DNA of 32,000 nucleotides from Rhizobiaceae bacterium (GTDB lineage Bacteria; Pseudomonadota; Alphaproteobacteria; Rhizobiales; Rhizobiaceae), in NCBI GenBank assembly GCA_963921345.3, contig OZ001228.1, forward strand, positions 670,536-702,535, in the 5' to 3' direction. Positions within the stretch are counted from its first letter, which is position 1. Each line of letters begins with the position of its first letter. The notes beneath the pieces are model-generated. The model was given only the letters and a program-made list of their open reading frames with translations. It was not told the DNA's origin and ran no database searches. A program made the position numbers and the translations under genes. Positions 1,509 to 23,500 of the stretch are shown piece after piece.

Positions 1509-1519
1509 AGGAGGCACCA

Positions 1520-2833: not shown

Positions 2834-2836
2834 TAA

Positions 2837-3094: not shown

Positions 3095-3360
3095 GTGATC
3101 CAATTACCGCACAGGACCTGCGCGAATGCTCGGCAGACTTCGAAGCCCATCTGCGGCTCGCCGGCGGCGGCTACATGTTCATCAAGCGCTGCGTCGAACA
3201 TCCCTCGCTGACGGTCACGGAGGGCCGTGAGAACCGCAAGGCGAAGCCCTATCGGTCAATCATGGTGGGCGACGAAGAATGCGACACGCTGGAAGATGCC
3301 GCCCGGCTGCTGACGCAAGAGCGCGACGTCGAGGCTTCTCGGGAGGATATCGGATCATGA
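3091..3360 (+). CDS. hypothetical phage protein
   Basis: GGAGG upstream. ATGA overlaps at both ends (3091, 3357). No recognisable domain. Confidence 0.5.
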   Translation: MSDPITAQDLRECSADFEAHLRLAGGGYMFIKRCVEHPSLTVTEGRENRKAKPYRSIMVGDEECDTLEDAARLLTQERDVEASREDIGS

Positions 3361-5037: not shown

Positions 5038-5324
5038 CGTATCCGCAGATCACCTATCATGCGGTGCTGCGCTACCTGGAGCGCGGTCTGGGCGTTGATA
5101 TCGACGGGCTGCGCTGCCGCATGGCCACGAGACTGCCCGAGGCGCAGTCGGTGGTGGAGCAGTTCGGCGAGGGCGCGATCATCAGGGACGGCCTGTGTTT
5201 TCATCTCAGACGCCGCGACGACGGGTCGGCCGTGCTGGTGTCGGTCACCAGCGCCCAGGCGTCTCAGTTGTCGAACCGGGCGCTGCGGCTCAGGCGAAGG
5301 AGGAAGCGGGCATGCCAGACGTGA
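5034..5324 (+). CDS. hypothetical phage protein
   Basis: ATG 5034 overlaps the upstream stop. 96 aa with a basic C-terminus. No recognisable domain. Confidence 0.45.
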   Translation: MTYPQITYHAVLRYLERGLGVDIDGLRCRMATRLPEAQSVVEQFGEGAIIRDGLCFHLRRRDDGSAVLVSVTSAQASQLSNRALRLRRRRKRACQT

Positions 5325-6206: not shown

Positions 6207-6541
6207 CTGCATCGGACGAACTGCCCGGTGTGCTTGCCGAGATCGCGGCCGTGGCGGGCCGTGACGCAGCGCTCATGATCGCCTGGAAGCATGGCGGCGA
6301 CGATGGCTGGGACGTTCCTCGCGGCGATACGACCGCAGCGGCTGAACTGGCGCGGCTGATCGGCAAGGGGCCGGCAGCAGGCATCATGCGCCGTTTCGGC
6401 GGCAACAGCGTCGCCGTTCCGCTGGCGCGCCGTCATCTGGCGCCGTGGCTTGCCGGTCGCGGCATGAACGCCACCGAGATCGCCACCGCCATGCGCATCA
6501 CCCGCAGGACAGCGCGGCGCTACATGAAGGCATCGTCTTGA
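6203..6541 (+). CDS. Mor-family transcriptional activator (Mu Mor/C-like)
   Basis: 112 aa. C-terminal HTH GMNATEIATAMRITRRTARRYMK. Lies between the early genes and the head module as in Mu-like phages. ATGA overlap at 6203. Confidence 0.65.
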   Translation: MTASDELPGVLAEIAAVAGRDAALMIAWKHGGDDGWDVPRGDTTAAAELARLIGKGPAAGIMRRFGGNSVAVPLARRHLAPWLAGRGMNATEIATAMRITRRTARRYMKASS

Positions 6542-6635
6542 GACATCATTGCAGCGGACCATGGTCCGCTGCCCGGCAGACGCGTGGACAGGTAATGTGA
6601 TCGGGAACCACCCAACCCGTCGCCGGAGCCCGCCC

Positions 6636-7007
6636 ATGCAAATCACCGCCGAACACTGGCAGACCTTTGCCGCCATGATTGCCATCCTGGGCATTCTGGC
6701 CGGAGCCCGGGTATCGCTGCGCAAGCTGGGCTTTCTGCGCCCACCCGAACCGCCGGCAGCACCTGCGGCCTCCACGGAGATCGCCGAGCGGCTCGAGCGT
6801 CACGCCGAGCGGTTGACCAAGCTGGAGGCGGCGGTGGTGGGGCTGGCGAGCCGCGACGACATTCACAAGCTGCAGATTGCGATCGAGCGCCAGGGCGGCG
6901 ACATGCGCAAGCTGCAGACGGCCATCGAACACGACGCCAAGGCGGTCGATCAGCTCTCGGCCGCGATCATCCGCATCGAGGACCACCTGCTTGGAGAAAA
7001 ACGCTGA
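6636..7007 (+). CDS. small membrane-anchored coiled-coil phage protein (Mu gp25-position, DUF2730-like)
   Basis: ATG 6636 inside ORF 6549..7007. TM helix WQTFAAMIAILGILAGARV, then a heptad-like region (LTKLEAAVVGLASRDDIHKLQIAIERQ...). The family name is from memory only. Confidence 0.5.
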   Translation: MQITAEHWQTFAAMIAILGILAGARVSLRKLGFLRPPEPPAAPAASTEIAERLERHAERLTKLEAAVVGLASRDDIHKLQIAIERQGGDMRKLQTAIEHDAKAVDQLSAAIIRIEDHLLGEKR

Positions 7008-7318
7008 TGAGCTATGCCGCCACGCTAGAGGAACACCGGCGCCTGGCCGTCCTGATCCATCTGTCGGCCTGTCTCGACTATGCCTCCAATTCGGAGATCC
7101 TGCTGGATGTGGTCAACGGCGTCGGCATCACCACCAGCCGCGATCAGCTGACCGAAACGCTCGCCTGGCTCGGCCAGCAGGAACTGGTCTCGATCGAGGA
7201 TCATGAAGGCTTCCTCATTGTCGAAGCGACGGCGCGTGGCGTCGACGTTGCGCAAGGCCGCGCGCTTGTACCAGGTGTCAGACGCCCCGCGCCAAAACGC
7301 GCGTCGAAGGGATGCTGA
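7007..7318 (+). CDS. hypothetical phage protein (Mu gp26-position)
   Basis: ATG 7007 shares a base with the upstream TGA. 103 aa. Conserved position just before the gp27-like gene. Confidence 0.5.
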   Translation: MSYAATLEEHRRLAVLIHLSACLDYASNSEILLDVVNGVGITTSRDQLTETLAWLGQQELVSIEDHEGFLIVEATARGVDVAQGRALVPGVRRPAPKRASKGC

Positions 7319-7319
7319 G

Positions 7320-7859
7320 ATGCCGCAGCGCCGCAAGATCGACCTGTTGCCGGTGGAACTGCGCGAGTGGCTCCAGGAAGAACTGAAGAAACGCGGCTTT
7401 CGCCACTACGAGGACCTGACCGAGGCGCTGAACGCCCGGCTCGAGGAGGAAGGGCTGGAACTGCGCGTCGGCCGCTCGGCCGTGCATGCCTATGGCCAGT
7501 CCTATCTCGAATATGCCACCATGCAGGAGCAGGCCCAGGACCAAATCCGCCTGTTCCTGGAAGAGGCCAGCCTGAAGGAGGAGGTCGATGTGACCTCCGC
7601 GCTGTTTCAGCAACTGACAACCCTGCAATGGCGGTTGCAGATGATGCTGGCCGATCCGGAAAAGTTGCCGGATCCGCGCGGCATGAAGGACCTGACCACG
7701 GCGCTCAACAACCTGATCCGCTCGACCAGCCTGCGCAACGGCATCCTGAAGGCCGAACAGGCCAGGCAGTCGGAGCGGCTGGAACAGGCCGTCGAGGCCG
7801 GCGAGATCGACCAGGTCGCCGCCCGCAAGGCGCGCGAGATCATGGGCTTCGGCGCATGA
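7320..7859 (+). CDS. Mu gp27-like terminase small subunit (DUF3486 type)
   Basis: ATG 7320 inside ORF 7203..7859. N-terminus PQRRKIDLLPVELREWLQEELKKRGFRHYEDLTEALN is typical of gp27-like proteins. Immediately precedes and overlaps the large terminase gene. Confidence 0.7.
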   Translation: MPQRRKIDLLPVELREWLQEELKKRGFRHYEDLTEALNARLEEEGLELRVGRSAVHAYGQSYLEYATMQEQAQDQIRLFLEEASLKEEVDVTSALFQQLTTLQWRLQMMLADPEKLPDPRGMKDLTTALNNLIRSTSLRNGILKAEQARQSERLEQAVEAGEIDQVAARKAREIMGFGA

Positions 7860-9334
7860 CCGTCCACGCCCCGGTCATCGATTTCCTGCCGTACCAGAAG
7901 GCGTGGATGAACGACCCGTCACGCTTCAAGATCGGCATGATCACGCGGCGCGGCGGCAAGACCTTTGCCACCGTGGGCGAGGCGGTCGACGACTGCATCA
8001 ATGCGGAGATCGAGCGCCGCAAGACGCGTTGGACGATCCTCAGCCGATCGGAGGCCACGGCCCGCGAGGCCGTCGACGAGGCGGCCCGGCCGATGACCAG
8101 CGCCTGGTACGAGGTCTATTCGACCCTGGCCAGACGCGGCCGGCCGGAATTCAGCGAAGAGGACTTCGTCGTCCCGGCCCATACCAGGCAACTGATCCAG
8201 ATGGGCCAGGTCTTCGAGGTCCATGTCGAGCAGGCCACCTACAAGGCGCAGGAAGTGCGCTTTCCGGGCGGCTCAAGGATTACCGCGATCTCCGCCTCGC
8301 CGCACGCCGCACGCGGCTTTGGCGGCAACCTGATCCTCGACGAGTTCGCCTTCCACCAGGACAGCCGCCGCATCTGGGGCGCCGCCTTTCCGGTCGCCGC
8401 GCGCGGCAGGCACAAGATCCGCATCATCTCGACCCCGAACGGCAAGGGCAACAAGTTCTACGAGATCATGACCACGCCGGACAATGGCTGGTCGAAGCAC
8501 CATGTCGACATTCATGAGGCCGTCGAACAGGGCCTCGACGTCGACCCCGATGAACTGCGCAGGGCGCTCAACGACGAAGACGTCTGGGCGCAGGAGTTCA
8601 TGCTCAAATGGATGGAGGCCGCCAGTGCGTGGCTCACCCATGAACTGATCTCGTCCTGCGAGGACCCGCGCGCCGGTCACCCCGAGGTCTATGCCGGCGG
8701 CCTGTGCTTCGTCGGCGTCGATATCGCGGCAAGGAACGACCTGTTCGTGATCTGGGTCGCAGAGATGGTCGGCGGCCAGTTGATCACCCGGGAAATCATC
8801 ACGGATCGCAAGATCAGCTTCGCACGCCAGGACGATATGCTGGCCGATGTGTTCCGCCGCTATCGTGTGGTGCGTTGCTGCATGGACCAGACCGGCATGG
8901 GCGAAAAGCCGGTCGAGGATGCCAGAAGGGCGCATGGGACAAGCCGTGTCGACGGCATCCTGTTCAGCGTCACGTCCAAGCTGGACCTGGCGATCGGCAT
9001 GAAGGATCGCATGGAAGAACGCGGCCTGCTCATTCCCGAAGGCGATCCCCTGCTGCGCGCCGACCTGCATGCGATCAAGTCGGTCACGGGCGCGACCGGA
9101 ATCCGCCGCCTGATAGCCGATGGCGACACGGATGGTCATGCCGACCGGTTCTGGGCCGCCGCACTGGCCTGCGCGGCCGCGGGCTCGACCGCGGGCCCCT
9201 TCGAGATGCGAGTGGGGCCGCAACTGGCCACCACGGCGCTCGGCGGCGGTCCGGGGGGCGCGGCGGGCTACCGCGTCGATCCGCATCTCAACATCGTCCG
9301 CTCGCCGCTGGCGGGCCCTGTCGGCTGGAGGTGA
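7856..9334 (+). CDS. terminase large subunit (Mu gp28-like)
   Basis: ATG 7856 (residue 164 of ORF 7367..9334) overlaps the gp27 stop. LPYQKAWMND, P-loop-like TRRGGKTF, Walker B LILDEFAF, C-terminal nuclease-like VGVDIAARNDLFV. Confidence 0.85.
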   Translation: MTVHAPVIDFLPYQKAWMNDPSRFKIGMITRRGGKTFATVGEAVDDCINAEIERRKTRWTILSRSEATAREAVDEAARPMTSAWYEVYSTLARRGRPEFSEEDFVVPAHTRQLIQMGQVFEVHVEQATYKAQEVRFPGGSRITAISASPHAARGFGGNLILDEFAFHQDSRRIWGAAFPVAARGRHKIRIISTPNGKGNKFYEIMTTPDNGWSKHHVDIHEAVEQGLDVDPDELRRALNDEDVWAQEFMLKWMEAASAWLTHELISSCEDPRAGHPEVYAGGLCFVGVDIAARNDLFVIWVAEMVGGQLITREIITDRKISFARQDDMLADVFRRYRVVRCCMDQTGMGEKPVEDARRAHGTSRVDGILFSVTSKLDLAIGMKDRMEERGLLIPEGDPLLRADLHAIKSVTGATGIRRLIADGDTDGHADRFWAAALACAAAGSTAGPFEMRVGPQLATTALGGGPGGAAGYRVDPHLNIVRSPLAGPVGWR

Positions 9335-9340
9335 CGCGCC

Positions 9341-10915
9341 ATGGATACCAGGGACACCGAGATCCCCAAACGCCCCGATACCGAAGAACAGACCGCGCCG
9401 CAGCTGACCGCGCGGCTGGGCGGCCTCGGCGTCTGGGGCCAGACCGCCGGCTGGCTGGAGGGCCTGGGATCGGGCCTTGCCGGAACGGCCGGCGGCTTCA
9501 CGGCGGGAGCGTTTGGCGACAATGCCGCGATCGACGCCGCCGAGATCGCGCTCACCGACAGCAAGGTATCGGCCGTGCTGGGTCAGCGCATCGACGGGCT
9601 GCTGGCGGCGCCGCTGATGATCGAGCCCGCCAGCGACACCCCGCTGGACGTGGCGGCCGCCGACGATCTGCGCGCGCAGTTGCAGGCCATCGACATGAAC
9701 CGCGTCAGCCGCGCGCTCCTGCACGCGATCTGGTACGGCTACGCCCTCAGCGAGTGCCTGTGGGCGATCGACGGCCGGCGGGTGCGGCTCGTCGACATCC
9801 GCAGCCGCGATCCGCGCCTCATCCGCTACGACTGGACCACGCTGGAACCGCTGTTGGTGACGCGCGGCCAGCCCGGCGGCATCAACCTGCCGCCGGCCAA
9901 ATACATCCTGCATCGCAACCCGCCGCGCCATGGCGGGCAGCCCTTCGGGCTCGGCGCCGCGCACTGGTGCATCTGGCCGGTCTGGCTCAAGCGGCAGGCG
10001 ATGCGCATGTGGTCGGTGGCGCTGGAGAAGTTCGGCACGCCGACGCTGGTGGGCAAACACTTGCGCGATGCCCCCAAAAGCCAGGTGGACGCGTTGCTGG
10101 CCACGATGGCCGCGGCGATCAGCGCCAGTTGCATCGCCCTTCCCGACGACCAGGACGTGCAGATCCTGGCCGCCGCGAAATCCGGCACATCGGGCGGCTC
10201 GGGTGGTTCCGGCGGCGGCGATTTCAAGGCCATGGTCGCCGCCCTCGACCGCATGATCGCAGAGGCCGTCGTCGGCCAGCACGCAACCTCCGAAATCGGC
10301 CAGCACGTGGGCACCGCGCAGGTCCAGAACGAAACACTCCAGGCGCTGATCGCCAGCGACGAACACAGGCTCTCCGAATGCCTGCGCTCCACCGTGGCGA
10401 CATGGCTCACCGCCTGGAACTTCCCGGGCGCCGCCGTCCCGCGCCTGCGACGCGACACCGCGCCGCCGGAGGACCTGGAAGCCCGCGCCCGACGCGACCT
10501 CTATATCGCAAAGGCGTCCGGCCGAAGACCTGCGGCCGACTATGTCGAGGAGGTCTATGGCGGCACATGGGAAGAGGCCGCACCCGACCCCGGTGCGGAC
10601 CCCGCCAGGTTCGCGGCGGCCGCCGCTCCGACCGACGCAATCACCGGCCTCGTCAATCACCTCATCGGCGAGGACATCGCGCTCGAGGCCGCCGCCGCAA
10701 CCGTGCTGCCCGTCGAAGAGGCCATCGCCGGGGCGACATCGCTTCAGGACCTGCGCACCCGGCTCGACCGCATCGCACAGGCACCACCGCCGGACGCTCT
10801 GACACAGCTCTACGCCCGCGCCGACTTCATCGCGGGCATGGCCGGAAACGCCGGCGTTCCGCTGGGCCATGCGTCGGGAGGACCCGACGGTGATGAAGAC
10901 GATCCGCAGACCTGA
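9341..10915 (+). CDS. portal protein (Mu gp29-like, DUF935 type)
   Basis: 524 aa ORF directly after TerL. Size and position fit; internal region resembles DUF935 portals. Confidence 0.75.
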   Translation: MDTRDTEIPKRPDTEEQTAPQLTARLGGLGVWGQTAGWLEGLGSGLAGTAGGFTAGAFGDNAAIDAAEIALTDSKVSAVLGQRIDGLLAAPLMIEPASDTPLDVAAADDLRAQLQAIDMNRVSRALLHAIWYGYALSECLWAIDGRRVRLVDIRSRDPRLIRYDWTTLEPLLVTRGQPGGINLPPAKYILHRNPPRHGGQPFGLGAAHWCIWPVWLKRQAMRMWSVALEKFGTPTLVGKHLRDAPKSQVDALLATMAAAISASCIALPDDQDVQILAAAKSGTSGGSGGSGGGDFKAMVAALDRMIAEAVVGQHATSEIGQHVGTAQVQNETLQALIASDEHRLSECLRSTVATWLTAWNFPGAAVPRLRRDTAPPEDLEARARRDLYIAKASGRRPAADYVEEVYGGTWEEAAPDPGADPARFAAAAAPTDAITGLVNHLIGEDIALEAAAATVLPVEEAIAGATSLQDLRTRLDRIAQAPPPDALTQLYARADFIAGMAGNAGVPLGHASGGPDGDEDDPQT

Positions 10916-12288
10916 TGCCTGATCCGATTGATCTCAGCCCCCCGGTGAAGGCCATCGGCCTCGATCCCCAGGAGGCGATTGAATTCTTCCGCTCCAAAGG
11001 CTACGCACCGCCCGAAAGCCGGTTTTCCTATCGCGACTGGTTCGGCGCATCACACGCCCGCGGCTTCGTCGTCGCCAAGGCCATGCAGGACGATCTGCTC
11101 GCAACCATCCGTGAGGCCGTCGATGACAGCCTTGCAAAAGGCCTGACCCTGGACAACTTCAACGACACGCTCATCCCCAAGCTCAAGGCCGCCGGCTGGT
11201 GGGGCCAGAAGACCATGCGCGATCCGCTCACAGGCGAAATGCGAACCGTCCAGCTCGGCTCCAGGCGCCGCCTCGCCGTCATCTTCGACACGAACCTGAG
11301 AACCTCATACGCCGCCGGCAAATGGACCCGCATCCAGCGTACGAAGGACCTGCTGCCCTACCTGCTCTATACACAGCTCCAGAGGGTCACCAAGCGCGAG
11401 GCGCACACACGCTTCCACCGCCTGGTCCTGCCCGCCGATCATCCGCTGTGGGCCACCCACTATCCACCCAACGGATATTACTGCGCCTGCACCGTGCGCC
11501 AGATGAGCCGGACCATGCTGGACAACGAGGGGATCGCCGTCTCGGCCGAACCGCCGATCAAGTACAAGACCTGGACCGATCCCCGAACCGGCCGACGGCT
11601 GCGGGTGCCCGAAGGCATCACTCCGGGCTTCGACACCAATCCCGGAGCCACCTTTCTCGCCGACCAAGGACGCCATGACAGCATCGCGGGTGACCTCACC
11701 CCGGAAGCCCGCGGAGCCGAACTGGGACTGATCCACGAAGCCCGAAGCCGGGGGCTCAGAACCGGCAGCCGCCATCTCGCCGCGATGGATAACGACATGC
11801 CGAGCGGTTGGATCGACGGAGGATCACAACGCCCGCTGCCCGATGACACGCTCAAGGTCCGGCTCGCCGATCCCGCCGCAAGCATCGCGCTGATCCGAAA
11901 CCAGCCGGCATCGCAGGGCCTGTCGTCCGCCGACCTGCAAGACCTCGAAACATGGCCAGGCCTTTCCCGCACCGTCGCCGTCGCCCACGACGGATCCCTC
12001 CACAGGGCAAGCCTGCGAGCCGAAACACCGCAGCCCGGCCTCGCCGCCGCGACCGCATCACTGCTGAATATCGCCCGCCAGAAGATCCGCTCCATGAGCG
12101 AGCCTGGAACCGACGACCGCGTCATCGAGACGCTCGCCATCCTCGCCACTGCACGAACGCTCGATCGCGCCGGACTGATCGACTACGCATGGACCCTCGC
12201 AGGCGGCAGCAAGCTGATGCTCGACAACTTCGGCACAAGCCGCATGGACAGTCTGGTCGCCGAAATGGCCGCCAGCCTCACGCCCTGA
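10915..12288 (+). CDS. MuF-like head morphogenesis protein (Mu gp30 family)
   Basis: HTRFHRLVLPADHPLWATHYPPNGYYCACTVRQMS is the characteristic Phage_Mu_F core. Follows the portal gene with a TGATG overlap. Confidence 0.8.
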   Translation: MPDPIDLSPPVKAIGLDPQEAIEFFRSKGYAPPESRFSYRDWFGASHARGFVVAKAMQDDLLATIREAVDDSLAKGLTLDNFNDTLIPKLKAAGWWGQKTMRDPLTGEMRTVQLGSRRRLAVIFDTNLRTSYAAGKWTRIQRTKDLLPYLLYTQLQRVTKREAHTRFHRLVLPADHPLWATHYPPNGYYCACTVRQMSRTMLDNEGIAVSAEPPIKYKTWTDPRTGRRLRVPEGITPGFDTNPGATFLADQGRHDSIAGDLTPEARGAELGLIHEARSRGLRTGSRHLAAMDNDMPSGWIDGGSQRPLPDDTLKVRLADPAASIALIRNQPASQGLSSADLQDLETWPGLSRTVAVAHDGSLHRASLRAETPQPGLAAATASLLNIARQKIRSMSEPGTDDRVIETLAILATARTLDRAGLIDYAWTLAGGSKLMLDNFGTSRMDSLVAEMAASLTP

Positions 12289-12319
12289 ACAAGGAAGAAT
12301 ACCGGCGCGATTTTACAGG

Positions 12320-12489
12320 CCGTTTAACACCCTCGAAAACGCAGGAAAAAACACCGTTTAAACGACCTTCAGGCAAGCCGATCCGCCGGGATTGAGCAAA
12401 TCACCGTCGCATGGCCGTTTCCAGACCGCGCCCTCCAATCGGCAAGATACTACCCGCAGACCCCCTACGTTACCGCCGTTTCGGTACTC
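12320..12489 (+). repeat. four direct CCGTTT(N3-5)AC motifs in the non-coding spacer
   Basis: CCGTTTAACACC (12320), CCGTTTAAACGACC (12354), CCGTTTCCAGACC (12415), CCGTTTCGGTACTC (12476). The last two spacings are both 61 bp. Confidence 0.6.
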
Positions 12490-12490
12490 T

Positions 12491-12530
12491 CATCCGGCTT
12501 CATCCGGGAACTTCCGGCTTCTTCCGGTTT
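12491..12530 (+). repeat. 4 x 10-bp tandem repeat, consensus CWTCCGGNTT
   Basis: CATCCGGCTT CATCCGGGAA CTTCCGGCTT CTTCCGGTTT, read directly from the sequence. One helical turn per unit. Confidence 0.85.
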
Positions 12531-15500
12531 GAGCATTATTTATGTCGTCCTACACTTCCTGCTGGCGGACGATCCAGGTGCCGGCAAGACGATCATGGCC
12601 GGCCTTTTGATGAAGGAACTGATCGCGCGCGGCGATCTAGAACGCTGCCTGATTGTCGCACCGGGCAGCCTGGTCGAACAGTGGCAGGACGAACTCGGCG
12701 AGAAGTTCGCGCTCGAATTCGACATCCTGACGCGCGACATGATCGAGACCGCACGATCCGGCAATGTGTTCAAGGACCGCGACCGCCTGATCGTCCGGCT
12801 CGATGTGCTGGCGCGCAACGAAGAGCTTCAGGACAAACTGCTCGGATCGCCGGAATGGGACCTGATCATCTGCGACGAGGCGCACCGCATGTCGGCGACC
12901 TGGTTCGGCGGCGACGTCAAATACACCAAGCGCTACCAGGTCGGCCAGAAATTGGGGCGGATCTGCCGTCACCTGCTGTTGATGTCGGCAACGCCACACA
13001 ACGGCAAGGAAGAGGACTTCCAGTTGTTCATGGCGCTGCTTGACGGCGACCGGTTCGAGAGTCGTTTCCGCGACGGCGTACACTATGCCGACACCGAAGA
13101 CATGATGCGCCGGCTCACCAAGGAGGAACTGCTGCGCTTCGATGGACGACCGCTGTTTCCCGAGCGGCGCGCCTATACGGTGAAATACGATCTGTCGCCG
13201 AAGGAAGCGGCACTATATGCGGCGGTGACGGATTATGTCCGCACCGAGATGAACCGGGTACAGCGCTTTGCCGCGACAGACGGCAGGAAGCTCAACACGG
13301 TGGGCTTCGCCCTGCAGATCCTGCAGCGGCGCCTCGCCTCTTCGCCTGCTGCCATCCACAGGTCGCTGATGCGCCGGCGCGAGCGCCTTGAGAGCGAACT
13401 CGCCGAAGCGCGGCTCGCCGCAAGGGGCGGCCGGGCCTCGATCAATGCGACCGATGTCGGCGACGACATCCTGCGCAATATCGATGAATATGGCCAGGAG
13501 GATGTCGACGACCTGGAGGAACGGATATCGACCGGCGCGACCACGGCGGAAACGATTGAGCAACTGGCGATCGAGGTCGAGACGCTGAAGTATCTCGAAG
13601 CAGAGGCCCTGGGCGTGCTGGCTTCCGGCGAGGACACGAAATGGCGGCAACTCGACCGCATCCTCGATGACAACCTGATGGTTGATGGCGACGGCAATCG
13701 CCGCAAGCTGATCATCTTCACCGAACCCAAGGACACGCTGCACTATCTGTGCGACAAGGTGCGCGCCCGGCTGGGCAGGCCGGAGGCCGTCGATGTCATT
13801 CATGGCGCGGTGACGCGCGAAGAGCGCCGCAAGGTGATCGAACGCTTCATGCAGGACCGCGACCTGCTGGTGCTGATCGCCAACGATGCCGCCGGCGAAG
13901 GCGTCAACCTGCAGCGCGGCCATCTGATGGTGAACTACGACCTGCCGTGGAACCCGAACAGGATCGAACAGCGCTTCGGACGCATCCACCGGATCGGCCA
14001 GACCGAGGTCTGCCACCTGTGGAACATCGTTGCGGCGGACACGCGCGAAGGCGAGGTCTATGGCCGCCTGCTGGAAAAGCTGGAGGCCGCACGCGCTGCC
14101 CTTGGCGGGCGCGTCTACGATGTGCTCGGCGAGTTGTTCGAAGGTGTCGCGCTGAAGGACCTTCTGATCGAAGCCATCCTCTACGGTGAAAGGGATGAAG
14201 TGCGCGAGCGCCTGTTCCGACAGGTCGACGGCGTGGTCGATCAGACTCACCTGCTCGACCTTCTCAAGCGCCGCGCGCTGACGAATGACACCATGCCGCA
14301 GGCGAAGGTCCGGAAACTGCGCCTCGACATGGAACGGGCGGAAGCGCAGCGGCTTCAGCCGCATCACGTGCAGAGCTTCTTTGTCGAGGCGTTTCAGCGG
14401 CTGGGCGGCCGGTTGAAGGCGCGGGAGGATGGCCGCTGGGAGATCACGCATGTCCCCGTGCGCCTTCGCGAACGCGACCGGCAGATCGGAACCGGTGCTC
14501 CGGTCCAGAAGAAATACGAGCGCATCTGCTTCGACAAGGCCGGGATCAACCGGCAACCGGTCGCGGCCTTCATCTGTCCGGGTCACCCGCTGCTTGAAGC
14601 GGTCATCAGCATCGCGCGCGAAGATCACGGCCACCTGATGAAGCAGGGCGCGGTCATGATCGACGATGCCGACGACAGCATGGCACTGTCGGCCATCTTC
14701 CTCATCGAACACAGCGTGCAGGACGGCTGTCGTACCGGCGCAGACAGGCCGCACATTGTTTCGCAAAGGCTGCAATTCGCGGCGATTGCTGAAACCGGTG
14801 TGACGACCGATGCCGGGATCGCGCCGCACCTCAACCTGCGTCCGGCCGATGCGGACGAGATCGCACACGCCGAAGACCTGCTCGATCAGGACTGGCTGAC
14901 GTCCGACCTGGAAAAACCCGCGCTGGAATTCGCGACCGTGGAATTGGCGCAGCGGCATGTTGCGGAGGTGAAGGCACGGCGCCTTCCCGAGATCGACAAG
15001 GTCGCGGCCGAGGTCAAGGCGCGGCTTGGCAGGGAAATCAATCACTGGGACAAACGCGCCGCCGAGCTTCGGGAAGAGGAAAAGGCCGGCAAGAAGACCC
15101 GCCTCAACTGGCAGAACGCCGAGCGCCGTGCCGAGGAACTTGCCGAACGGCTGAAGCGCCGGCAGGCACAGCTTGACGCGGAACGGCTGATCACCGCGCA
15201 ACCGCCCCGTGTGCGCGGCGGTATGGTCGTCATTCCGCGCGGCCTGCTCGAAGAACGTCGTGGCGATGCGGTGAAAGACGGCATGGCACCGCCGGGATTT
15301 GCCGAAGACCCGGAAGCGCGCAGCAGGGTAGAGGTCGCCGCCATGGATGCTGTGATGGAGGCGGAAAAGGCGCTAGGCAACCATCCGGAAGATGTTTCGG
15401 CGCAGAAGGTCGGCTATGACATCGCCTCCTTCGATCCGACGGCTGACCGCATGCGGTTCATCGAAGTCAAGGGCCGGGTCGAAGGGGCGGATACGGTGAT

Positions 15501-15699
15501 GATCACGCGCCAGGAGGTCATCACCTCGCTGCACGAACCCGACCGGTTCATCCTCGCCATCGTGAGTGTAAAGGACAGTTTTGCGCATGCCCCGCGCTAT
15601 GTGCGCGGACCGCTCGTGGAGCGCGAGCCGTCGTTTTTGGAGACCGCGATACAATTCAGCCTGAAACGCCTGCTGGAGCGGGCGGAGGAGCCGGAATGA
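12529..15699 (+). CDS. SNF2/DEAH-type helicase with C-terminal DUF3883 domain, apparently 5'-truncated
   Basis: Walker A DDPGAGKT sits about 15 codons from the TTG start. DEAH (ICDEAHRM), SATPHNG, helicase-C motifs ANDAAGEGVNLQ and QRFGRIHRIGQ. C-terminal GYDIASFDPTADRMRFIEVKGR...RFILAIV is the DUF3883 signature. No ATG or SD at the 5' end, and the upstream frame is unrelated. Confidence 0.8.
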   Translation: MSIIYVVLHFLLADDPGAGKTIMAGLLMKELIARGDLERCLIVAPGSLVEQWQDELGEKFALEFDILTRDMIETARSGNVFKDRDRLIVRLDVLARNEELQDKLLGSPEWDLIICDEAHRMSATWFGGDVKYTKRYQVGQKLGRICRHLLLMSATPHNGKEEDFQLFMALLDGDRFESRFRDGVHYADTEDMMRRLTKEELLRFDGRPLFPERRAYTVKYDLSPKEAALYAAVTDYVRTEMNRVQRFAATDGRKLNTVGFALQILQRRLASSPAAIHRSLMRRRERLESELAEARLAARGGRASINATDVGDDILRNIDEYGQEDVDDLEERISTGATTAETIEQLAIEVETLKYLEAEALGVLASGEDTKWRQLDRILDDNLMVDGDGNRRKLIIFTEPKDTLHYLCDKVRARLGRPEAVDVIHGAVTREERRKVIERFMQDRDLLVLIANDAAGEGVNLQRGHLMVNYDLPWNPNRIEQRFGRIHRIGQTEVCHLWNIVAADTREGEVYGRLLEKLEAARAALGGRVYDVLGELFEGVALKDLLIEAILYGERDEVRERLFRQVDGVVDQTHLLDLLKRRALTNDTMPQAKVRKLRLDMERAEAQRLQPHHVQSFFVEAFQRLGGRLKAREDGRWEITHVPVRLRERDRQIGTGAPVQKKYERICFDKAGINRQPVAAFICPGHPLLEAVISIAREDHGHLMKQGAVMIDDADDSMALSAIFLIEHSVQDGCRTGADRPHIVSQRLQFAAIAETGVTTDAGIAPHLNLRPADADEIAHAEDLLDQDWLTSDLEKPALEFATVELAQRHVAEVKARRLPEIDKVAAEVKARLGREINHWDKRAAELREEEKAGKKTRLNWQNAERRAEELAERLKRRQAQLDAERLITAQPPRVRGGMVVIPRGLLEERRGDAVKDGMAPPGFAEDPEARSRVEVAAMDAVMEAEKALGNHPEDVSAQKVGYDIASFDPTADRMRFIEVKGRVEGADTVMITRQEVITSLHEPDRFILAIVSVKDSFAHAPRYVRGPLVEREPSFLETAIQFSLKRLLERAEEPE
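12542..12554 (+). repeat. TG..CA-type terminal inverted-repeat-like sequence (ATGTCGTCCTACA)
   Basis: Its reverse complement TGTAGGACGACAT matches 11/13 the left terminus TGTAGGGCGACAG of the IS21-family element at 27640. It lies exactly where helicase homology begins. Confidence 0.45.
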
Positions 15700-17165
15700 G
15701 CAAGACAAGAGAGACCGCTTCGGACAAGCGCAAGCAGCCAAGAAGTATCAGGATCAAGGTGAGCGATTTCGGGCCGATCTCCAAGGGCGAAGTTGACCTT
15801 CGTCCACTCACCGTGTTCGCCGGCCCGAGCAACACTGGCAAGTCCTGGCTGGCGACGCTGATCTATGTAATGGATCAATATCTCAGCGACACTACGAAAT
15901 CTGTATTCAGATGGCCACTGTACCCCAAAAAGGACCCGTCGGTTCGATTTCCCGAGAAGCCCGCCATTTGGCTTGAAAGCATCGGCAACAAAGAAGCGGT
16001 GCCGCTGACCAACAGTGACCGTAAAATACTTGCAACAGCCCTCAAGGCCGATCGTCTCGAATTTGGAACGCAACTCTTGCGCAGCTTTGGACTGACTGAA
16101 CTGCGTCACCTTTCACGCGAGGGCAGCAACCGTACCGCAAGATTCAATTTCTTCGATGAAGATGCTACCCGTTCCCCCGCAACCCGTTATCAATTTGCCA
16201 TTACCGATAATGACAATGTCGCACTCCGAGTGGACATCGCCAATCAATTGAAGCTTGGACTGTTCGAGAATTCGCAACGGCTTTTGGCCGATATCAGTCA
16301 TGACATCCAAACAGATGACGAAGATACCAGGCAAGTGATGCGATTTATTCATCACATTTTTTCGTCCGAAAACAGCAAATTTGCGTTCTATCTGCCGGCG
16401 GACCGTGGCGGGGTGATGCATGCGCACCATACGGTTGTCAGCGCACTTATACAGAATGCATCGCGTGGAGGCCTCATTCGCAATGCACCGTTGCCGATGC
16501 TATCGGGTATACTGGGCGATTTTCTGCAAAACCTTCTAAATGTTGTGCAGAACCAGCAAGGTGGCATGTCCTCCTGGCTTGCTCTCAGGGGCAAAGAACT
16601 GGACGGCGCACGAGCCGACCGTCTAGAGAACAATGTCCTTAACGGGAGGGTCGAGGTTGAAAAATCAAGTGTCGATTACCCGCGCTTTACCTACATTCCA
16701 GATGGGTGGGACAGGCCGCTTTCCCTTGTGGGTGTCTCGTCCATGGTCTCGGAACTGGCCCCGGTGTCGCTTTATCTGCGCCATCATGTCCGGGAGGGTG
16801 ATCTTCTGATTCTCGAGGAACCAGAAGCGCATCTGCATCCCGCCATGCAGGTTGCATTCCTCCGCGAAATCGCGGAATGGGTCAGGCAGGGAATTCGCGT
16901 CATCCTGACGACCCACAGCGAATGGGTGCTTGAGGAACTTGCGAATATCGTGGCAACCGGTGAATCCGATTGCCCTGAAGGACTTCCCAATGAGGATGTC
17001 GGACTTTGGCTGTTCGAAACGATTGACGCCAAAAATCCAGACAAGGGTTCGACAGTGCGTGAAATCCTTTGGGACCCGGATGGTGTCGGATACGATACCG
17101 GCTTTGAAGATGTCGCAATGGCGCTGCACAACGAATGGGTCAATCTCGCGGGAGCTGAGGATTGA
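15696..17165 (+). CDS. ABC/SMC-like AAA ATPase (AAA_15/AAA_21 type)
   Basis: ATG overlaps the helicase stop (ATGA), with a GGAGGAG RBS. Walker A FAGPSNTGKS, Walker B LLILEEPEAHLHP, then ILTTHS. Sampled lines 45-53% GC against 65-70% in flanking genes. Confidence 0.8.
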   Translation: MSKTRETASDKRKQPRSIRIKVSDFGPISKGEVDLRPLTVFAGPSNTGKSWLATLIYVMDQYLSDTTKSVFRWPLYPKKDPSVRFPEKPAIWLESIGNKEAVPLTNSDRKILATALKADRLEFGTQLLRSFGLTELRHLSREGSNRTARFNFFDEDATRSPATRYQFAITDNDNVALRVDIANQLKLGLFENSQRLLADISHDIQTDDEDTRQVMRFIHHIFSSENSKFAFYLPADRGGVMHAHHTVVSALIQNASRGGLIRNAPLPMLSGILGDFLQNLLNVVQNQQGGMSSWLALRGKELDGARADRLENNVLNGRVEVEKSSVDYPRFTYIPDGWDRPLSLVGVSSMVSELAPVSLYLRHHVREGDLLILEEPEAHLHPAMQVAFLREIAEWVRQGIRVILTTHSEWVLEELANIVATGESDCPEGLPNEDVGLWLFETIDAKNPDKGSTVREILWDPDGVGYDTGFEDVAMALHNEWVNLAGAED

Positions 17166-17176
17166 AAGGCGGCTTG

Positions 17177-17629
17177 ATGAAAACTGTGAGGCAGGAGTTC
17201 AACAAATGCTGCCTCGTAACAAATTGCAGAAGAGACGGCTGCTCCGTCGATCTCAGAGGGATTGCTCATCCTTACCTACTTGTTGATTTCGACAGTCGTT
17301 GTGCTCCTTTCAAGCAGCATGAAACACGCTGTGACTACCTGTTGATTGGGGAAGGCAATCCCGCGCTGGTGGTGCCTATTGAACTGACTCGGGGCCGAAA
17401 AAAACAAAATATCTTGGTTCGGCAATTACAGGCTGGTGCCGAAGCGGCAGAAAGTGTTCTGCCTGACAATTTGGCCGTGCAATTTCAGCCCGTTCTTGTG
17501 GGTAAGTCAAAAAAATACAACCTGTCCAGCGGGAGAGAGCCGACAGTCAGCTTTCGAGGCAAGTCGGAGGGCATCTTAAAGATCGATTGCGGCGGCGTGC
17601 TGAAAGATGCATTGAGGAAAGCGAAATGA
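17177..17629 (+). CDS. hypothetical 150-aa protein; Cys cluster plus a weak nuclease-like D...ExT/R motif
   Basis: ATG 17177 (residue 6 of ORF 17162..17629) with AAAGG 8 nt upstream. CCLVTNCRRDGC near the N-terminus. CDYLLIGEGNPALVVPIELTRGRKK (D at 17333, E at 17381). Stop overlaps the methyltransferase ATG. AT-rich like the preceding ATPase gene. Confidence 0.6.
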   Translation: MKTVRQEFNKCCLVTNCRRDGCSVDLRGIAHPYLLVDFDSRCAPFKQHETRCDYLLIGEGNPALVVPIELTRGRKKQNILVRQLQAGAEAAESVLPDNLAVQFQPVLVGKSKKYNLSSGREPTVSFRGKSEGILKIDCGGVLKDALRKAK

Positions 17630-20550
17630 CGCATAGCCGCAAGAAAAAGCTGATCGAAGTCGCGATACCGCTGGATGTCATCAACGCTGCATCGGCGCGT
17701 GAGAAGTCGATTCGTCACGGGCATCCCTCGACGCTGCATCTGTGGTGGGCGCGTCGGCCATTGGCGGCTTGCCGGGCGGTGCTGTTCGCGCAGCTTGTCG
17801 ATGATCCTTCGGAGCATGTCGAGGACCTGCTCGGCGATCCCGATCTTCGGAAAGCGGCCGAAAAGGAACTGGCCGAAAGACTGGAGAAGCGCGGGAAGGA
17901 AAAGCAAGACGGTAGCGTCAATGCGGCGGATGACAGGCCGGTGACGCTGGAGGATGTGATCGTTGAACGCGAACGCCGACGCCTGTTCGCGATCATCGGG
18001 GATCTGGTGCGGTGGGAGAACTCGACGAACGAAGAAGTGCTTGAGCGCGCCCGAGCCGAAATCCGTCGAAGCTGCGGTGGCGAAATGCCGCCGGTCTACG
18101 ATCCATTCTCCGGCGGCGGGTCGATTCCACTGGAAGCGCAGCGCTTCGGACTGCCTGCTTTTGGCTCCGATCTCAATCCGGTGGCGGTGATGATCGGCAA
18201 GGCGATGATCGAAATCCCGCCGAAATTCAGGGACCAGCCGCCGGTGCATACGGACGTACGGGAGCGGCAGTTCTACCGCAATGCCGAAGGGCTGGCGGAG
18301 GACGTCAAGCACTATGGCGCGTGGATGCGCGAGCAGGCCTGGTCTCGCATCGGTCACCTCTACCCGGATGTTGAACTGCCGGAGGACGAGGGTGGCGAAG
18401 AGGCGACGGTGATCGCCTGGATCTGGGCGCGCACGGTACCGAGCCCGGACCCGGCTTTTTCGGATGTGCATGTGCCGATTGCCTCCAGCTTCCTGCTGAG
18501 TTCCAAGCCGGGCAAGAAAGGAGCCTGGATTGAACCGGTGGTTGACCGGCAGGCCAGGACGATTGCCTACCGCATCAGACGCGGCGGCACAAAGGACGAG
18601 ATTGCCAAGGTTAGAGAGGGGACCAAGGCCGGGCGCGGTGCGAATTTCCGTTGCCTGATGTCCGGCACGGCGATCACGCCGGATTATGTCAAGAGCAAAG
18701 GCAAGTCCGGACAGATGGGTCAAACGCTCATGGCCATTGTTGCCGAGGGCAAAACTGGCAGGGCCTACGTGGCACCGTCGGTCGAGCATGAGACAATCGC
18801 GTTTTCTGCCGAACCCAAGTGGAAGCCGGACACAAACCTGCCGGATGATCCACGGAATTTCTGGACGGTGGATTACGGCATGAAGACCTTCGGCGATCTT
18901 TTCACCGACCGTCAGTTGGTTGCGTTGAACACGTTCAGCGACTTGGTGCATGATGTGCGGGCGCAGGTGGAAGCGGACGCGCGTGAGGCGGGCCTGTCCT
19001 TTGATGACATACCACTGCGTGACGGCGGCAGCGGCGCAAAGGCCTACGCCGAGGCGGTGAGCGTGTATCTGGGGTTTGCGATTACCCGTCTGGCAGACCG
19101 CGGCAGCACTATTTGCGGCTGGGATTCTGGATATACGAAGATTCGCAACACATTTGGACGCCAAGCCATCCCCATGACCTGGGATTTTGCAGAAGGCAAT
19201 CCATTTTCAGATTCAACAGGCAATTGGAAATCATGTGTTGCTTGGATTTGGAAGGTTTTGGACGCGCTGGTTCCAGTTGGTTCTGGAAACGAGCGCCAGC
19301 ATGACGCCCAAACGGTCAACTATCCCGCCGATACCGTTATTTCGACCGACCCGCCCTACTACGACAATATCGGCTACGCTGATCTGTCCGATTTCTTCTT
19401 CTGCTGGATGAAGCCAGTCATCCGCCCCGTATATCCTGATCTGTTTGGAATATTGGCCGCACCCAAAGCGGAGGAACTGGTCGCCACTCCTTACCGCCAC
19501 GGTGGCAGGGAGGCAGCAGAAGCTTTCTTCCTTGATGGAATGAGCCGTGCCATCGGCAACATGGCGCGGCAGGCCAGCGATTTGTTTCCGGCCACGATCT
19601 ACTACGCCTTCAAGCAGAGCGAGGTCGACCGGGAAGGCATGAGTTCCACGGGATGGGCGACGTTCCTGCAAGCGGTGATCGATGCCGGATTTGCGGTCGT
19701 TGGCACATGGCCGATGCGAACGGAGATGGCAAACCGGATGATTGCGTCAGGCACCAACGCCCTTGCCAACTCCGTCGTCCTCGTCTGCCGCAAGAAGGCG
19801 GCCGATGCCGAGGTGATCACCCGCACCGAGTTCACCCGCGCCCTGAAGCGCGAATTACCGTCGGCGATTGGCGCACTTCGAACGGCCAACATCGCGCCCG
19901 CCGACATGCCGCAATCGGCGATCGGACCGGGCATGGGTATCTTCTCGCGCCACGCGGCCGTGCTGGAATCCGACGACAGCCCGATGCCGATGAAGACCGC
20001 GCTACAGCTCATCAATCACGAACTCGACGCGTTCCTGAACGATGTTCAGGGCGAATTCGATGCCGACACCCGTTTTGCCATCACCTGGTTCGAGCAAAAT
20101 GGCATGACCGCCAGCGATTACGGCACGGCAAACAACCTCGCCACGGCCCGCGGCCTTTCGGTCGAGAGTGTCAAACATGCCGGCATCGTCGAAAGTCGGG
20201 CTGGCAAGGTGCGCATTCTGAAGCGCGACGAATTGCCGGTCGAATGGGACCCGGCGACCGACACGCACCTTGCGGTCTGGAAGTGCTGCCAATACCTCAT
20301 CAGGACACTCGAAAACGATGGCGAACAGGCCACGGCCATGCTCTTGAAGAGGATCGGTGCGGACAAGGCTGATGCCGCCAAGGAACTCGCCTACTGCCTC
20401 TATGATATATGCGCCAACAAACGCGGAGACGCGAATGAAGCGACGTCTTACAACGCGCTGATCGCGGACTGGCCGGAACTGACACGGCAGGCGGCCAGGA
20501 TCCATGAAACCGATCTCGACGGCGACCCGCAGACCGCGATGAATTTGTGA
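17626..20550 (+). CDS. DUF1156-domain DNA methyltransferase (gamma-type motif order, DPPY)
   Basis: ATG 17626 overlaps the upstream TGA. The N-terminus KKLIEVAIPLDVINAASAREKSIRHGHPSTLHLWWARRPLAACRAV is the DUF1156 signature. AdoMet motif DPFSGGGS...GSDLNPVAV. Catalytic DPPY at 19348-19359. Confidence 0.85.
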   Translation: MTHSRKKKLIEVAIPLDVINAASAREKSIRHGHPSTLHLWWARRPLAACRAVLFAQLVDDPSEHVEDLLGDPDLRKAAEKELAERLEKRGKEKQDGSVNAADDRPVTLEDVIVERERRRLFAIIGDLVRWENSTNEEVLERARAEIRRSCGGEMPPVYDPFSGGGSIPLEAQRFGLPAFGSDLNPVAVMIGKAMIEIPPKFRDQPPVHTDVRERQFYRNAEGLAEDVKHYGAWMREQAWSRIGHLYPDVELPEDEGGEEATVIAWIWARTVPSPDPAFSDVHVPIASSFLLSSKPGKKGAWIEPVVDRQARTIAYRIRRGGTKDEIAKVREGTKAGRGANFRCLMSGTAITPDYVKSKGKSGQMGQTLMAIVAEGKTGRAYVAPSVEHETIAFSAEPKWKPDTNLPDDPRNFWTVDYGMKTFGDLFTDRQLVALNTFSDLVHDVRAQVEADAREAGLSFDDIPLRDGGSGAKAYAEAVSVYLGFAITRLADRGSTICGWDSGYTKIRNTFGRQAIPMTWDFAEGNPFSDSTGNWKSCVAWIWKVLDALVPVGSGNERQHDAQTVNYPADTVISTDPPYYDNIGYADLSDFFFCWMKPVIRPVYPDLFGILAAPKAEELVATPYRHGGREAAEAFFLDGMSRAIGNMARQASDLFPATIYYAFKQSEVDREGMSSTGWATFLQAVIDAGFAVVGTWPMRTEMANRMIASGTNALANSVVLVCRKKAADAEVITRTEFTRALKRELPSAIGALRTANIAPADMPQSAIGPGMGIFSRHAAVLESDDSPMPMKTALQLINHELDAFLNDVQGEFDADTRFAITWFEQNGMTASDYGTANNLATARGLSVESVKHAGIVESRAGKVRILKRDELPVEWDPATDTHLAVWKCCQYLIRTLENDGEQATAMLLKRIGADKADAAKELAYCLYDICANKRGDANEATSYNALIADWPELTRQAARIHETDLDGDPQTAMNL

Positions 20551-20563
20551 AGGACCGCGACGC

Positions 20564-23500
20564 ATGGCCAAGAGTACACGTCAATATGTCTTCGAGGGGA
20601 TGGAACTTTTGCCGGAAGCGCTCATTGCGTTCGTCGAAAAGCGCCTTGAAAGTGCGGTGAAGGGCCACTGGCAGGTGGAGGTCGCGGAGCGGGTCTCTGG
20701 CCTTCGGGTGACCGGTGGCACCGTTTCCTGGGACCAGCAGGGCTTGCTGAGGGCCATGATGGCGTTCTGGAAAGATTGCTTCGCTGCCGTGCTCGGTCAT
20801 CAGGAACGGTCCCATGTTTCCGAACTGCTCGATGTCAGGAACCGGCTGTCGCACAACGAGACCTTCACCTATGACGACGCGGAACGGGCGCTCGACACGA
20901 TGCGTCGGTTGATGGAGGCGATCAGTGCCGGCGAGACCGCCGCGAAGATTGGCAAGATGCGCGACACGATCCTGCGCACCAAATATGCGGAGTTGCAGCG
21001 CAACGAGGAACGCCGCAAGACAAGACGGCTGAACCTTTCGGTGGAAACGGTTGCGGGTCTGCTGCCGTGGCGCGAGGTGGTGGAACCGCATCAGGATGTT
21101 GCGACCGGCGAGTTCCAGCAGGCCGAATTTGCTGCCGATCTTGGCAAGGTGCATGCGGGCAGCGCACCTTCGGAATATCAGAACCCGCAGGAATTCTTCA
21201 GCCGCACCTATCTGACCGAGGGATTGGGCACACTGCTTGCCGGCGCGGCCAGACGCCTGTCGGGGGCGGGCGGCGATCCTGTTGTTGACCTGCAGACCAA
21301 TTTCGGCGGCGGCAAGACGCACGCGATGCTGGCGCTTTACCATATGGCGGGCGGCACGCCGTCGGGGGATCTGCCCGGCCTCGATCAACTGCTTTCTGAT
21401 CAGGAACTCGAAGTCCCGGAAAAGATCAGCCGGGCTGTGCTCGTCGGCACGGCGCGCGGGCCGCATGACCCGGTCCGTGGCGATGATGGGCACGAGGTCC
21501 GCACGACCTGGGGCGAACTTGCCTGGCAACTCGGCGGCGCGGACGCCTATGGGATGATCTCCGACAATGACGCGAAGGGCATCGCGCCCGGTTCTAACCT
21601 GCTGGAGGCGATCTTCAGGAAATGCTCGCCCTGCCTGATTCTGATCGATGAATGGGTCGCCTATCTGCGGCAGATCTACAAGGTCGACGGCCTTCCGTCC
21701 GGCTCGTTCGACGCCAATCTGTCCTTCGTCCAGTCCCTGACGGAAGCCGTCAAGGCGAGCCCCGGCACGCTGCTCGTCGCCTCGCTGCCCGCCTCGCAGA
21801 TCGAGGTCGGCGGTGAAGGCGGACAGGAAGCACTGGTGCGACTGAAGCAGACGTTCAGCCGTGTGGAATCGTCATGGCGTCCGGCGTCGCAGGAAGAGAG
21901 CTACGAGATCGTCCGCCGCCGGCTGTTCAAGGACATTCCGGGCGACAGGCATCACCACAAGGACAACACGCTGAAGCAGTTCGCGAAGCTCTACCGGGAG
22001 AACGCCAACGATTTTCCGCAGGGCTGTGCGGACGAGGACTACCGGCGCAAGCTGGAAAAAGCCTACCCGATTCATCCAGAACTGTTCGACCAGTTGTACA
22101 CGGGTTGGGGATCGCTGGAGAAATTCCAGCGTACACGTGGCGTGCTGCGGCTGATGGCACAGGTCATTCACGAATTGTGGATGGGCAACGATCCCTCGGT
22201 GATGATCATGCCGGGCGGCGTGGCGGTCGGCTCGGCTAGGGTCGAACCGGAACTGCTGCACTATCTCGACGTGAACTGGCAATCGATCATCGCCGCCGAT
22301 GTCGACGGCGAGGCCGCGACACCCTACAGGATCGACCAGTCCGCCCCGAACCTGAACCGCTATTCGGCGACGAGGCGCGTGGCGCGCGCGGTGTTCATGG
22401 GTTCGGCCCCTACGCACCGGGAACAGAACCGGGGGCTTGACGACAGGCAGATCAACCTCGGCGTCATCCAACCGGGCGAGAAGACCGCCATTTTCGGCGA
22501 CGCTCTGCGCCGTCTGACCAACCAGGCGCGGTTCATGCACAGCGATATGGGGCGCACTTGGTATTCTACATCGCAAAGCCTCAATCGCCTGGCCGCCGAC
22601 CGGGCCGGGCAGATCGAGGAAGCGCTCGTGCTGATGGAAGTCGACAAGGCGTTGAAGACGTATATGGACGGGATCGGCGACCGCGGGCATTTCGATGCGG
22701 TACAGGTGGCACCGTCCTCATCGGCCGACATTCCTGACGAGGGGGGCGGCGTTCGCGCTGTGGTGCTCGGTGTTGCGCACCCCCATTCGGTCCGTGACGG
22801 GTCGGAGGCGCTGGTCGAAGCAAAGGATATCCTGATGCAGCGTGGTGCGACACAACGCGTCTACCGCAATACGCTGGTGTTCCTGGCCGCCGACGCCCGG
22901 CAGGTCGACAACCTCAAGGATGGCGTTCGCTCGGTACTGGCATGGAACGGGATCGTTCGCGACACGGAACGTCTTGACCTGACACAGAGCGGCAGCGCTC
23001 TCGCCAAGCAAAGGGCGCAGGAAGCGGACGAGACGGTCATCACACGTCTTCGCGAATGCTGGTGTTACCTCATCTATCCATATCAGGAGAACGCGCAGGC
23101 GGATGTCGAATGGACATCCGGCAAGGTTTCGACGCAGGATGGCCTGCTACACCGGTCCGGCAAGATGCTGGTGAGCGATAACACGCTGCTGCCGGAACTC
23201 GGTCCCCAGCGTCTCGATCGCGATCTGAAGCGCTATATCTGGAAAGACAAGCCGCACCTTTCGCTGAAGGAGTTATGGGACTATCTCAACCGCTATACCT
23301 ATCTGCCGCGATTGAAAGACCGCGAGGTTCTGGCAAGGGCCGTGCAGGCAGCCGTATCGGGCCTTTTACCCGGCCCGTTCGCCTATGCGCAAATGTGGGA
23401 CGAGGAAACGCAGACCTATTGCGGCCTCATCATCGACAATGCAATCGCCGCGCCTGTCGTGATTGACGACGACAGCGTGATCGTCGCGGCGGAAGTGGCG

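Follow-up and report, generated by a model that had tools for sequence, protein, structure and literature searches.

The locus and the interrupted hmaA gene

The stretch of DNA analysed here (the window, 32 kb; C1 denotes the contig that carries it and G000 the window's own genome) contains one arm of a prophage, a short noncoding spacer at 12289-12554, and an operon of the Hma (helicase-methylase-ATPase) defence type whose first gene, hmaA, is truncated. The last phage gene, encoding a MuF-like minor head protein, stops at 12288, and the next long open reading frame (ORF) runs from a TTG at 12529. An original prediction for this locus listed the MuF stop, a set of CCGTTT motifs, a 10-bp tandem array, a 13-mer resembling the terminus of an IS21-family element and the truncation of the helicase gene, all of which are present in the sequence. 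Copies of CCGTTT(N3-5)AC occur at 12320, 12354, 12415 and 12476; CCGTTT is found 15 times on the plus strand of the window, with 4 of these copies inside 162 bp of the spacer, where about 0.06 would be expected (Poisson estimate; P ~1e-6 before correction for scanning). Tandem Repeats Finder (TRF) reports the array as a period-10 repeat at 12490-12527 (3.8 copies, 75% matches, score 41). An Rfam search with the spacer and two array-bearing loci returned nothing relevant.

We are confident that the spacer is the MuF-proximal end of a 42,003-bp Mu-like prophage, which transposed as one unit into hmaA, a helicase gene of the SNF2/DUF3883 type, at about codon 125. The insert spans C1:641087-683089, its final base being window position 12554. 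Its left junction reads ...TTGCG CTTCC then TGTAGCGCGACGAAAATAATGCTCAATCC..., and its right junction reads ...GGTTTGAGCATTATTTATGTCGTCCTACA then CTTCC TGCTGGCGG..., so that a short target duplication, of the kind proposed as a check of the prediction, is present at both junctions. The element starts with TG (TGTAGCGCG...) and ends with CA (...GTCCTACA), and the inverted spacer matches the other end of the prophage at 25 of 30 terminal positions. Taken alone, the C1 junctions are ambiguous, in that the 5 bp plus the TG can be read as a duplication of 7 bp. Because other copies of the prophage settle this ambiguity, we take the duplication to be 5 bp and the element to begin with TG. The mechanism of insertion would have been the usual strand transfer of Mu, with cuts staggered by 5 bp. 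The proposal that a TG..CA transposable phage ends within the helicase gene is thus borne out by the ends, the terminal repeat, the duplication and the ORF restored below; as to where exactly phage gives way to helicase, a phage terminus does lie at the predicted place, but phage DNA ends at 12554, and 12555-12559 (CTTCC) already belong to hmaA.

The two halves of the interrupted gene account for the whole protein. Against the PADLOC HmaA profile (1176 positions), the window ORF matches positions 123-1173 only and lacks about 122-125 N-terminal residues, in agreement with the earlier estimate of 100 or more. A profile search of the window's own genome places positions 1-134 at C1:640711-641112, so that the missing 5' fragment, PHQ Q-motif included, lies 42 kb upstream, next to the opposite prophage end. 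This 5' piece stops at a TAG made by the junction (CTG/TAG), and the sole start that the 3' piece has of its own, the TTG at 12529, is located inside the phage end. Removal in silico of the insert and one CTTCC copy yields an open frame of 3516 nt and 1171 residues. The pieces tile a homologue from a Bradyrhizobium barranii plasmid (WP_166354623, 1165 aa), covering residues 3-127 and 124-1164 at 79% identity each; DNA similarity to this plasmid begins exactly at window position 12556, and the plasmid gene has 125 codons ahead of that point. In four related genomes, two of the same genus, a continuous 77-78% match runs across the junction; these relatives and Bradyrhizobium plasmids have hmaA in one piece.

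Could the helicase gene instead be naturally short, with the spacer as its own promoter or regulatory region? The in-frame TTG does give an ORF of 1056 codons. Full-length homologues, however, carry 125 more residues before the junction, including the Q-motif, and so do not start near the Walker A motif; a search with the spacer DNA in 40 related genomes gave no match outside G000, relatives with an intact hmaA included; and a scan of 12100-12800 detected neither promoters nor terminators. We consider a short native gene extremely improbable. Since the homologues have the N-terminus and none of the 40 relatives has the spacer, the interpretation as an insertion stands. The features of the locus are collected in Table 1.

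Table 1. Features of the prophage end, the interrupted hmaA gene and the Hma operon (window positions unless C1 is given)
Feature	Position	Strand	Basis or remark
Prophage right arm	1..12554	+	Pfam/PHROG; left 29.4 kb of the element upstream of the window
MuF-like minor head protein gene, last of the right arm	10915..12288	+	PF04233, E 1.7e-10
Prophage terminal region, MuF side, noncoding, attL-like site spacing	12289..12554		266 bp
Four CCGTTT(N3-5)AC motifs, MuF-end-specific	12320..12487	+	
Inner putative transposase-type site (L2-like), CGACGGTGATTTGCTCAA	12392..12409	-	conserved in all family members aligned
Tandem array, 4 x 10 bp, CATCCGGCTT / CATCCGGGAA / CTTCCGGCTT / CTTCCGGTTT, abutting the terminal site	12491..12530	+	TRF
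Terminal inverted repeat ending ...CCTACA-3'	12525..12554		25/30 against the inverted other end, TGTAGCGCGACG...
Terminal putative transposase-type site (L1-like), CGACATAAATAATGCTCAA	12529..12547	-	
Target-site duplication CTTCC, right copy	12555..12559		5 bp
Target-site duplication CTTCC, left copy	C1:641082-641086		5 bp
hmaA 5' fragment, 126 codons	C1:640711-641091	same as 3' fragment	about 42 kb upstream of the 3' fragment
hmaA 3' fragment, codons ~125-1171, without start, N-terminal domain and Q-motif	12555..15699	+	PADLOC HmaA profile, tiling
ABC-type ATPase gene and small partner gene, embedded in the Hma operon	15696..17629	+	AAA_15/AAA_21; PADLOC PD-T4-4_A / HEC-type
hmaB, DUF1156 adenine methyltransferase, full length	17587..20550	+	PADLOC HmaB profile, 7-958 of 967
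hmaC, DUF499 ATPase with N-terminal Swt1-type HEPN, full length	20564..23857	+	HmaC profile, 3-937 of 941; PF18731

A Mu-like prophage with two divergent arms

The element is a complete Mu-like transposable prophage, organized in two divergent arms. Its right arm, on the plus strand, encodes a MuB-like AAA+ ATPase (AAA_22 match and a weak Phage-MuB_C match), Gam (Mu Gam, E 3e-39), a GcrA-like regulator, a DNA methyltransferase, TerS, TerL, a Mu-type portal protein (Portal_Mu, E 3e-74) and MuF (Phage_Mu_F), the last sharing 35-40% identity with its counterparts in Mu and roseophages. Immediately before the window start lie an S24-type repressor gene on the minus strand and a transposase gene with an rve core (E 2.5e-11) and a Mu-transposase C-terminal domain (Mu-transpos_C, E 1.8e-5 on a continuation ORF). 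The left arm, on the minus strand and directed towards the other end, carries genes for the head maturation protease, scaffold, major head protein, head-tail adaptor and baseplate J protein, and further for tail fibre, sheath, tape measure and a gpD-like hub. The centre is occupied by an amidase gene, a gene for an Acb2/Tad1-hairpin protein and an IS66-family insertion. Among deposited phages, none had a close MuF homologue (best 40% identical).

Two side observations concern the gene content. Beside the amidase gene, C1:662432-662962 encodes a 176-aa protein with an Acb2/Tad1 hairpin domain (PF24729, E 2e-17), a candidate sponge directed against CBASS or Thoeris. The early region of the phage contains hairpin-type repeats of about 45 bp, located at the window start and at window positions ~1773-1818 and ~3711-3757; they belong to a dispersed family with 86-96% matches at dozens of loci on contigs C2, C6, C7 and C9, mostly in prophage-like regions.

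Three further collinear copies are present in G000, one on C5 (where it wraps around the contig), one at C8:86382-129704 and one at C9:1954759-1993159, all 75-99% identical to the C1 copy and with the same gene order and the same ends. The segment 12289-12554 is 100% identical at the end of the C5 copy, and its last ~175 bp are 77-80% identical in C8 and C9. A 5-bp duplication, ATTTG, flanks the C9 copy at both ends. The other two share theirs crosswise, with GCACT at the left of C5 (the C5:251105/C5:10248 copy) and the right of C8, and AGATC at the left of C8 and the right of C5, which implies either reciprocal recombination between prophages on two replicons or misassembly. One may consider whether the hmaA junction is itself an assembly chimera, arising from the collapse or misjoining of four near-identical prophage copies: the last 6 kb of the C1 copy are 99.1% identical to the C5 copy, C5 and C8 carry each other's duplications, and the assembly, in 11 contigs, has an estimated contamination of 6%. 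A random misjoin, however, would not place CTTCC at both C1 junctions and leave flanks that rebuild a single in-frame ORF. Because the duplication matches and hmaA is rebuilt in frame, we argue strongly that the C1 junctions are real and regard a chimera as very unlikely.

Four observations weigh against our interpretation of the spacer as the end of a prophage that transposed as one unit, or against parts of it. First, the ~6 kb by the junction are 99-100% identical to the C5 copy, and an arm swap by the assembler is conceivable. Second, the MuF-side ends of the C8 and C9 copies read ..CCCAAA and not ..CA. Third, the C1 copy is probably no longer autonomous: in the C1 and C5 copies an in-frame TAA (C1:669829-669831, ~700 bp upstream of the window start) splits the Mu-transpos_C domain of the transposase, which is uninterrupted in C8 and C9, and the C1 copy only has an IS66-family element at C1:663266-664638, between the protease arm and the repressor gene, with 100% identical copies at C9:3596039 and C6:120887. 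Complementation in trans is conceivable. Fourth, the 10-bp array also occurs in elements other than phages (see below), which argues against a purely phage-packaging role for it.

MuF relatives 54-61% identical are encoded in metagenome-assembled genomes (MAGs) of Ruegeria (six loci fetched), of Dinoroseobacter and of another alphaproteobacterium; a protein search for MuF across 300 genomes from the order gave distant matches only, at most 49% identical. In all three MAGs, homology or a recognisable terminus stops 230-830 bp past MuF, with the same end anatomy, and the relatives' transposase and MuB genes lie upstream of MuF on the same strand. The Ruegeria capsid gene, 84% identical, is ~27 kb off and in the opposite orientation. 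As a separate observation, a related Mu-like prophage with two arms is present at least six or seven times in the 6.1-Mb genome of the Ruegeria sp. MAG (CBDAQX01; loci L048-L055), with ends 99% identical and flanking DNA that differs for each copy.

The position of MuF next to an end is the native layout of this phage family. We had considered a recent internal inversion or deletion that placed MuF there, and rejected it, the layout being common to four diverged copies and three other genomes. What, then, of a transposition-associated or illegitimate deletion that removed both the head and tail genes of the prophage and the 5' end of hmaA, and fused a truncated prophage to the helicase? This was one option of the original prediction, and it would account both for the lack of a head gene after MuF, from which a truncated prophage had been implied, and for a helicase without ~125 N-terminal residues. 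No sequence was lost, however: the 5' piece of hmaA survives intact beside the opposite end of the prophage, where the 5-bp duplication is found again, and the two halves of the gene account exactly for the full-length protein. Head and tail genes occupy the divergent other arm, and the 3 other copies and 3 other genomes share the layout. We judge a deletion highly improbable, and favour transposition of the intact element.

Compared with phage Mu, the prophage has the same TG..CA ends and 5-bp duplication and, near its ends, several inward-pointing putative transposase sites with unequal spacing at the two ends, together with an rve plus Mu-transpos_C transposase, a MuB-like ATPase, Gam, a Mu-type portal, MuF and many insertion sites per genome. 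In Mu, however, MuF lies mid-genome (16-17 kb of 36.7 kb) and is followed by protease and capsid genes; in the present element, the block from transposase to MuF has the opposite orientation with respect to the ends, which brings MuF up against the attL-like end. The Mu layout would be converted into this one if the block from repressor to MuF were inverted once between the ends. Further differences are a site sequence unrelated to the Mu consensus, an S24 (LexA/CI-type) repressor, and a 10-bp array that starts the L1-L2 spacer.

The closest parallel in layout is Burkholderia phage KS10 (NC_011216), in which MuF (gp01) is terminal and the head module is split, a layout called unique by its authors in 2008 (Goudie et al., PMC2628397). 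In KS10, the left end is 204 bp away from the MuF stop (266 bp in our element); the genes for terminase, portal and MuF are apart from those for protease, scaffold and capsid; the MuF end has two terminal transposase sites; and a 2.3-copy repeat of 10-bp period (34-56) sits just inside the terminal site. Unlike in our element, in which the A and B genes go with the terminase-to-MuF arm, the KS10 transposase genes are on the protease-to-tail arm; the two phages show no detectable similarity at the DNA level, the repeat of KS10 consists of an A-tract rather than of TCCGG-core units, and the KS10 host is a betaproteobacterium. C1, C5, C8, C9 and Ruegeria all have the KS10-type split head module; our element does not have the KS10-type orientation of the transposase genes.

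Anatomy of the prophage ends

Within the window, the motif CGAC-N7-8-TGCTCAA is confined to the spacer, where it occurs twice on the minus strand (0.03 expected for the window), at 8-26 and 146-163 bp from the tip of the MuF end. At the tail-gene end it occurs on the plus strand at 8-26, 31-48 and 79-96 bp from the tip (19 kb searched; 0.04 expected). All five sites point inward, and genome-wide, clusters of the motif mark exactly the eight ends of the four prophage copies. We infer from their sequence and placement that the CGAC..GCTCAA repeats are MuA-type transposase binding sites. By analogy with Mu, the MuF end, with its gapped L1...L2 arrangement, would be the counterpart of attL, and the tail end that of attR. 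In Mu itself, L1-L3 and R1-R3 are spaced differently, and HU binds and bends the L1-L2 spacer (PMC3145075).

When six MuF-side ends were aligned, both putative transposase-type sites proved to be conserved, as did a GGAAAAAA..CGTTT block, a CCGCCGTTT..CTCATCC block and an array abutting the terminal site. Arrays of 2-4 x 10 bp occupy the equivalent position in C8, C9, Ruegeria, Dinoroseobacter and the alphaproteobacterial MAG, the unit differing by lineage: CATCCGGCTT in C1 and C5, CATTCGGGTT in C8 and C9, GATAGGCCCG in Ruegeria, TTATCCCGGN in Dinoroseobacter and CATAGTCCGG in the alphaproteobacterial MAG. All four CCGTTT motifs sit on aligned positions with a recurrent C(C/G)G(T/N)TT core, and the first 330 bp of the other end contain no copy. 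The three spacer elements described separately in the original prediction are therefore parts of one conserved transposon end. Within it, the array and the CCGTTT motifs are presumably end-specific accessory sites. We would give roughly even chances that the array serves transpososome assembly as an architectural, bending or accessory-protein site within the L1-L2 spacer; that it is instead a site for packaging (pac / small-terminase) is distinctly less likely, though not negligible.

The third of these elements, ATGTCGTCCTACA at 12542-12554, had suggested an IS21-like element, and one may ask whether 12554 is the terminus of an IS21-family or other small insertion sequence (IS). Its reverse complement matches TGTAGGGCGACAG, the IS21 terminus at 27640, at 11 of 13 positions; IS21-family termini likewise start with TGTAGG.CGACA.. 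and have repeated subterminal CGACAG motifs, and their transposase is distantly related to MuA, IstA carrying a Mu-transposase-type C-terminal domain. Shuffled sequences, however, give 0.31 such matches by chance, a 13-nt likeness that is weak alone, and the local organisation is not that of IS21: no IstA/IstB genes are adjacent, and the nearest pair (27899-29796) has its own ends, so that the 2-2.5-kb IS21 layout is not seen at the 12554 terminus. The partner repeat (25/30) lies 42 kb away, flanked by phage tail genes, and conservation of the spacer is confined to the ends of prophage copies. An IS terminus can accordingly be given hardly any weight, and the end of the Mu-like prophage remains our reading of this sequence. 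The IS21-family element itself (window 27640-29900) is one of ~35 near-identical 2.25-kb copies in G000, and a second IS, of 1.34 kb, is present in ~20 copies.

The Hma operon, arrays outside the phage and what the insertion means

The operon into which the prophage inserted is a disrupted member of the Hma defence systems. Its three signature genes stand in canonical order and have very strong PADLOC profile matches. It differs from the known system in the prophage-split hmaA, in the ATPase and small-gene pair between hmaA and hmaB, and in an HmaC with an N-terminal HEPN domain. Instead of intact HmaA, HmaB and HmaC in one operon, the HmaA halves lie 42 kb apart, and the helicase is very probably inactive after the insertion. 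The embedded ATPase pair, hmaB and hmaC are intact; the suggestion that the methyltransferase side might have been spared agrees with the full length of the latter two. The upstream region of the operon is now 42 kb away, and expression of hmaB and hmaC would be uncoupled from the distant operon promoter.

The array is also found outside the phage. Together with ~10 flanking bases, it recurs at 90-92% identity at C4:1174683, C9:6626, C9:2157422, C1:638033, C10:50045 and C8:1259, and a second unit type, AAGTCCGGAT, occurs at five more loci. Each of these non-phage loci belongs to a repeated element ending ...GATCGCGCCTYAYGACA, a TG..CA-type terminus when read inwards, with a TCCGG-core array (3-4 x 10 bp) located within the element at 110-150 bp from this boundary. 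One such terminus, at C1:637913 (region 637913-638075, 2.6 kb upstream of the hmaA start), points into the hmaA-bearing DNA; another lies ahead of two DISARM-like helicase genes on C9, and several adjoin helicase-type defence genes. Besides the TG..CA-type terminus, 11-kb repeats at contig ends were found for the array-bearing elements; their other ends and transposition genes were looked for and not found. Further members of this element family lie at C4:1304204, C11:10877, C11:755248, C3:763856, C8:387804 and C9:3415705.

These occurrences suggest that the array is an accessory site common to Mu-superfamily ends, or that end modules are exchanged between elements, and the Hma island itself may be cargo of an array-bearing TG..CA element. 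Going further, we speculate that TCCGG-core arrays are a portable accessory module of Mu-superfamily TG..CA ends, shared or exchanged (~92% over 51 bp) between the phage and large non-phage defence-island elements and bound by some host or element factor; should the array act as a signal for packaging or transposition, the phage could mobilise or package those islands. In this specific form we consider the proposal improbable.

What is the relevance of these findings? As an example of gene disruption by mobile DNA, the insertion is clean but fairly ordinary, and the KS10-like layout in Alphaproteobacteria is mildly unusual. The "decapitated" defence gene is explained, and the prophage is given exact boundaries, which for Mu-like elements are often missed by prophage finders. 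In this strain the Hma system is disrupted, with its methyltransferase and ATPase genes intact. A KS10-like split head module also marks a family of transposable phages in Alphaproteobacteria, which share the anatomy of their ends and are present in several copies in at least two genomes. The lineage-specific 10-bp arrays beside the terminal site, together with those at the ends of defence-island elements, provide a small lead towards the accessory sites that Mu-type elements may use for transposition or packaging.

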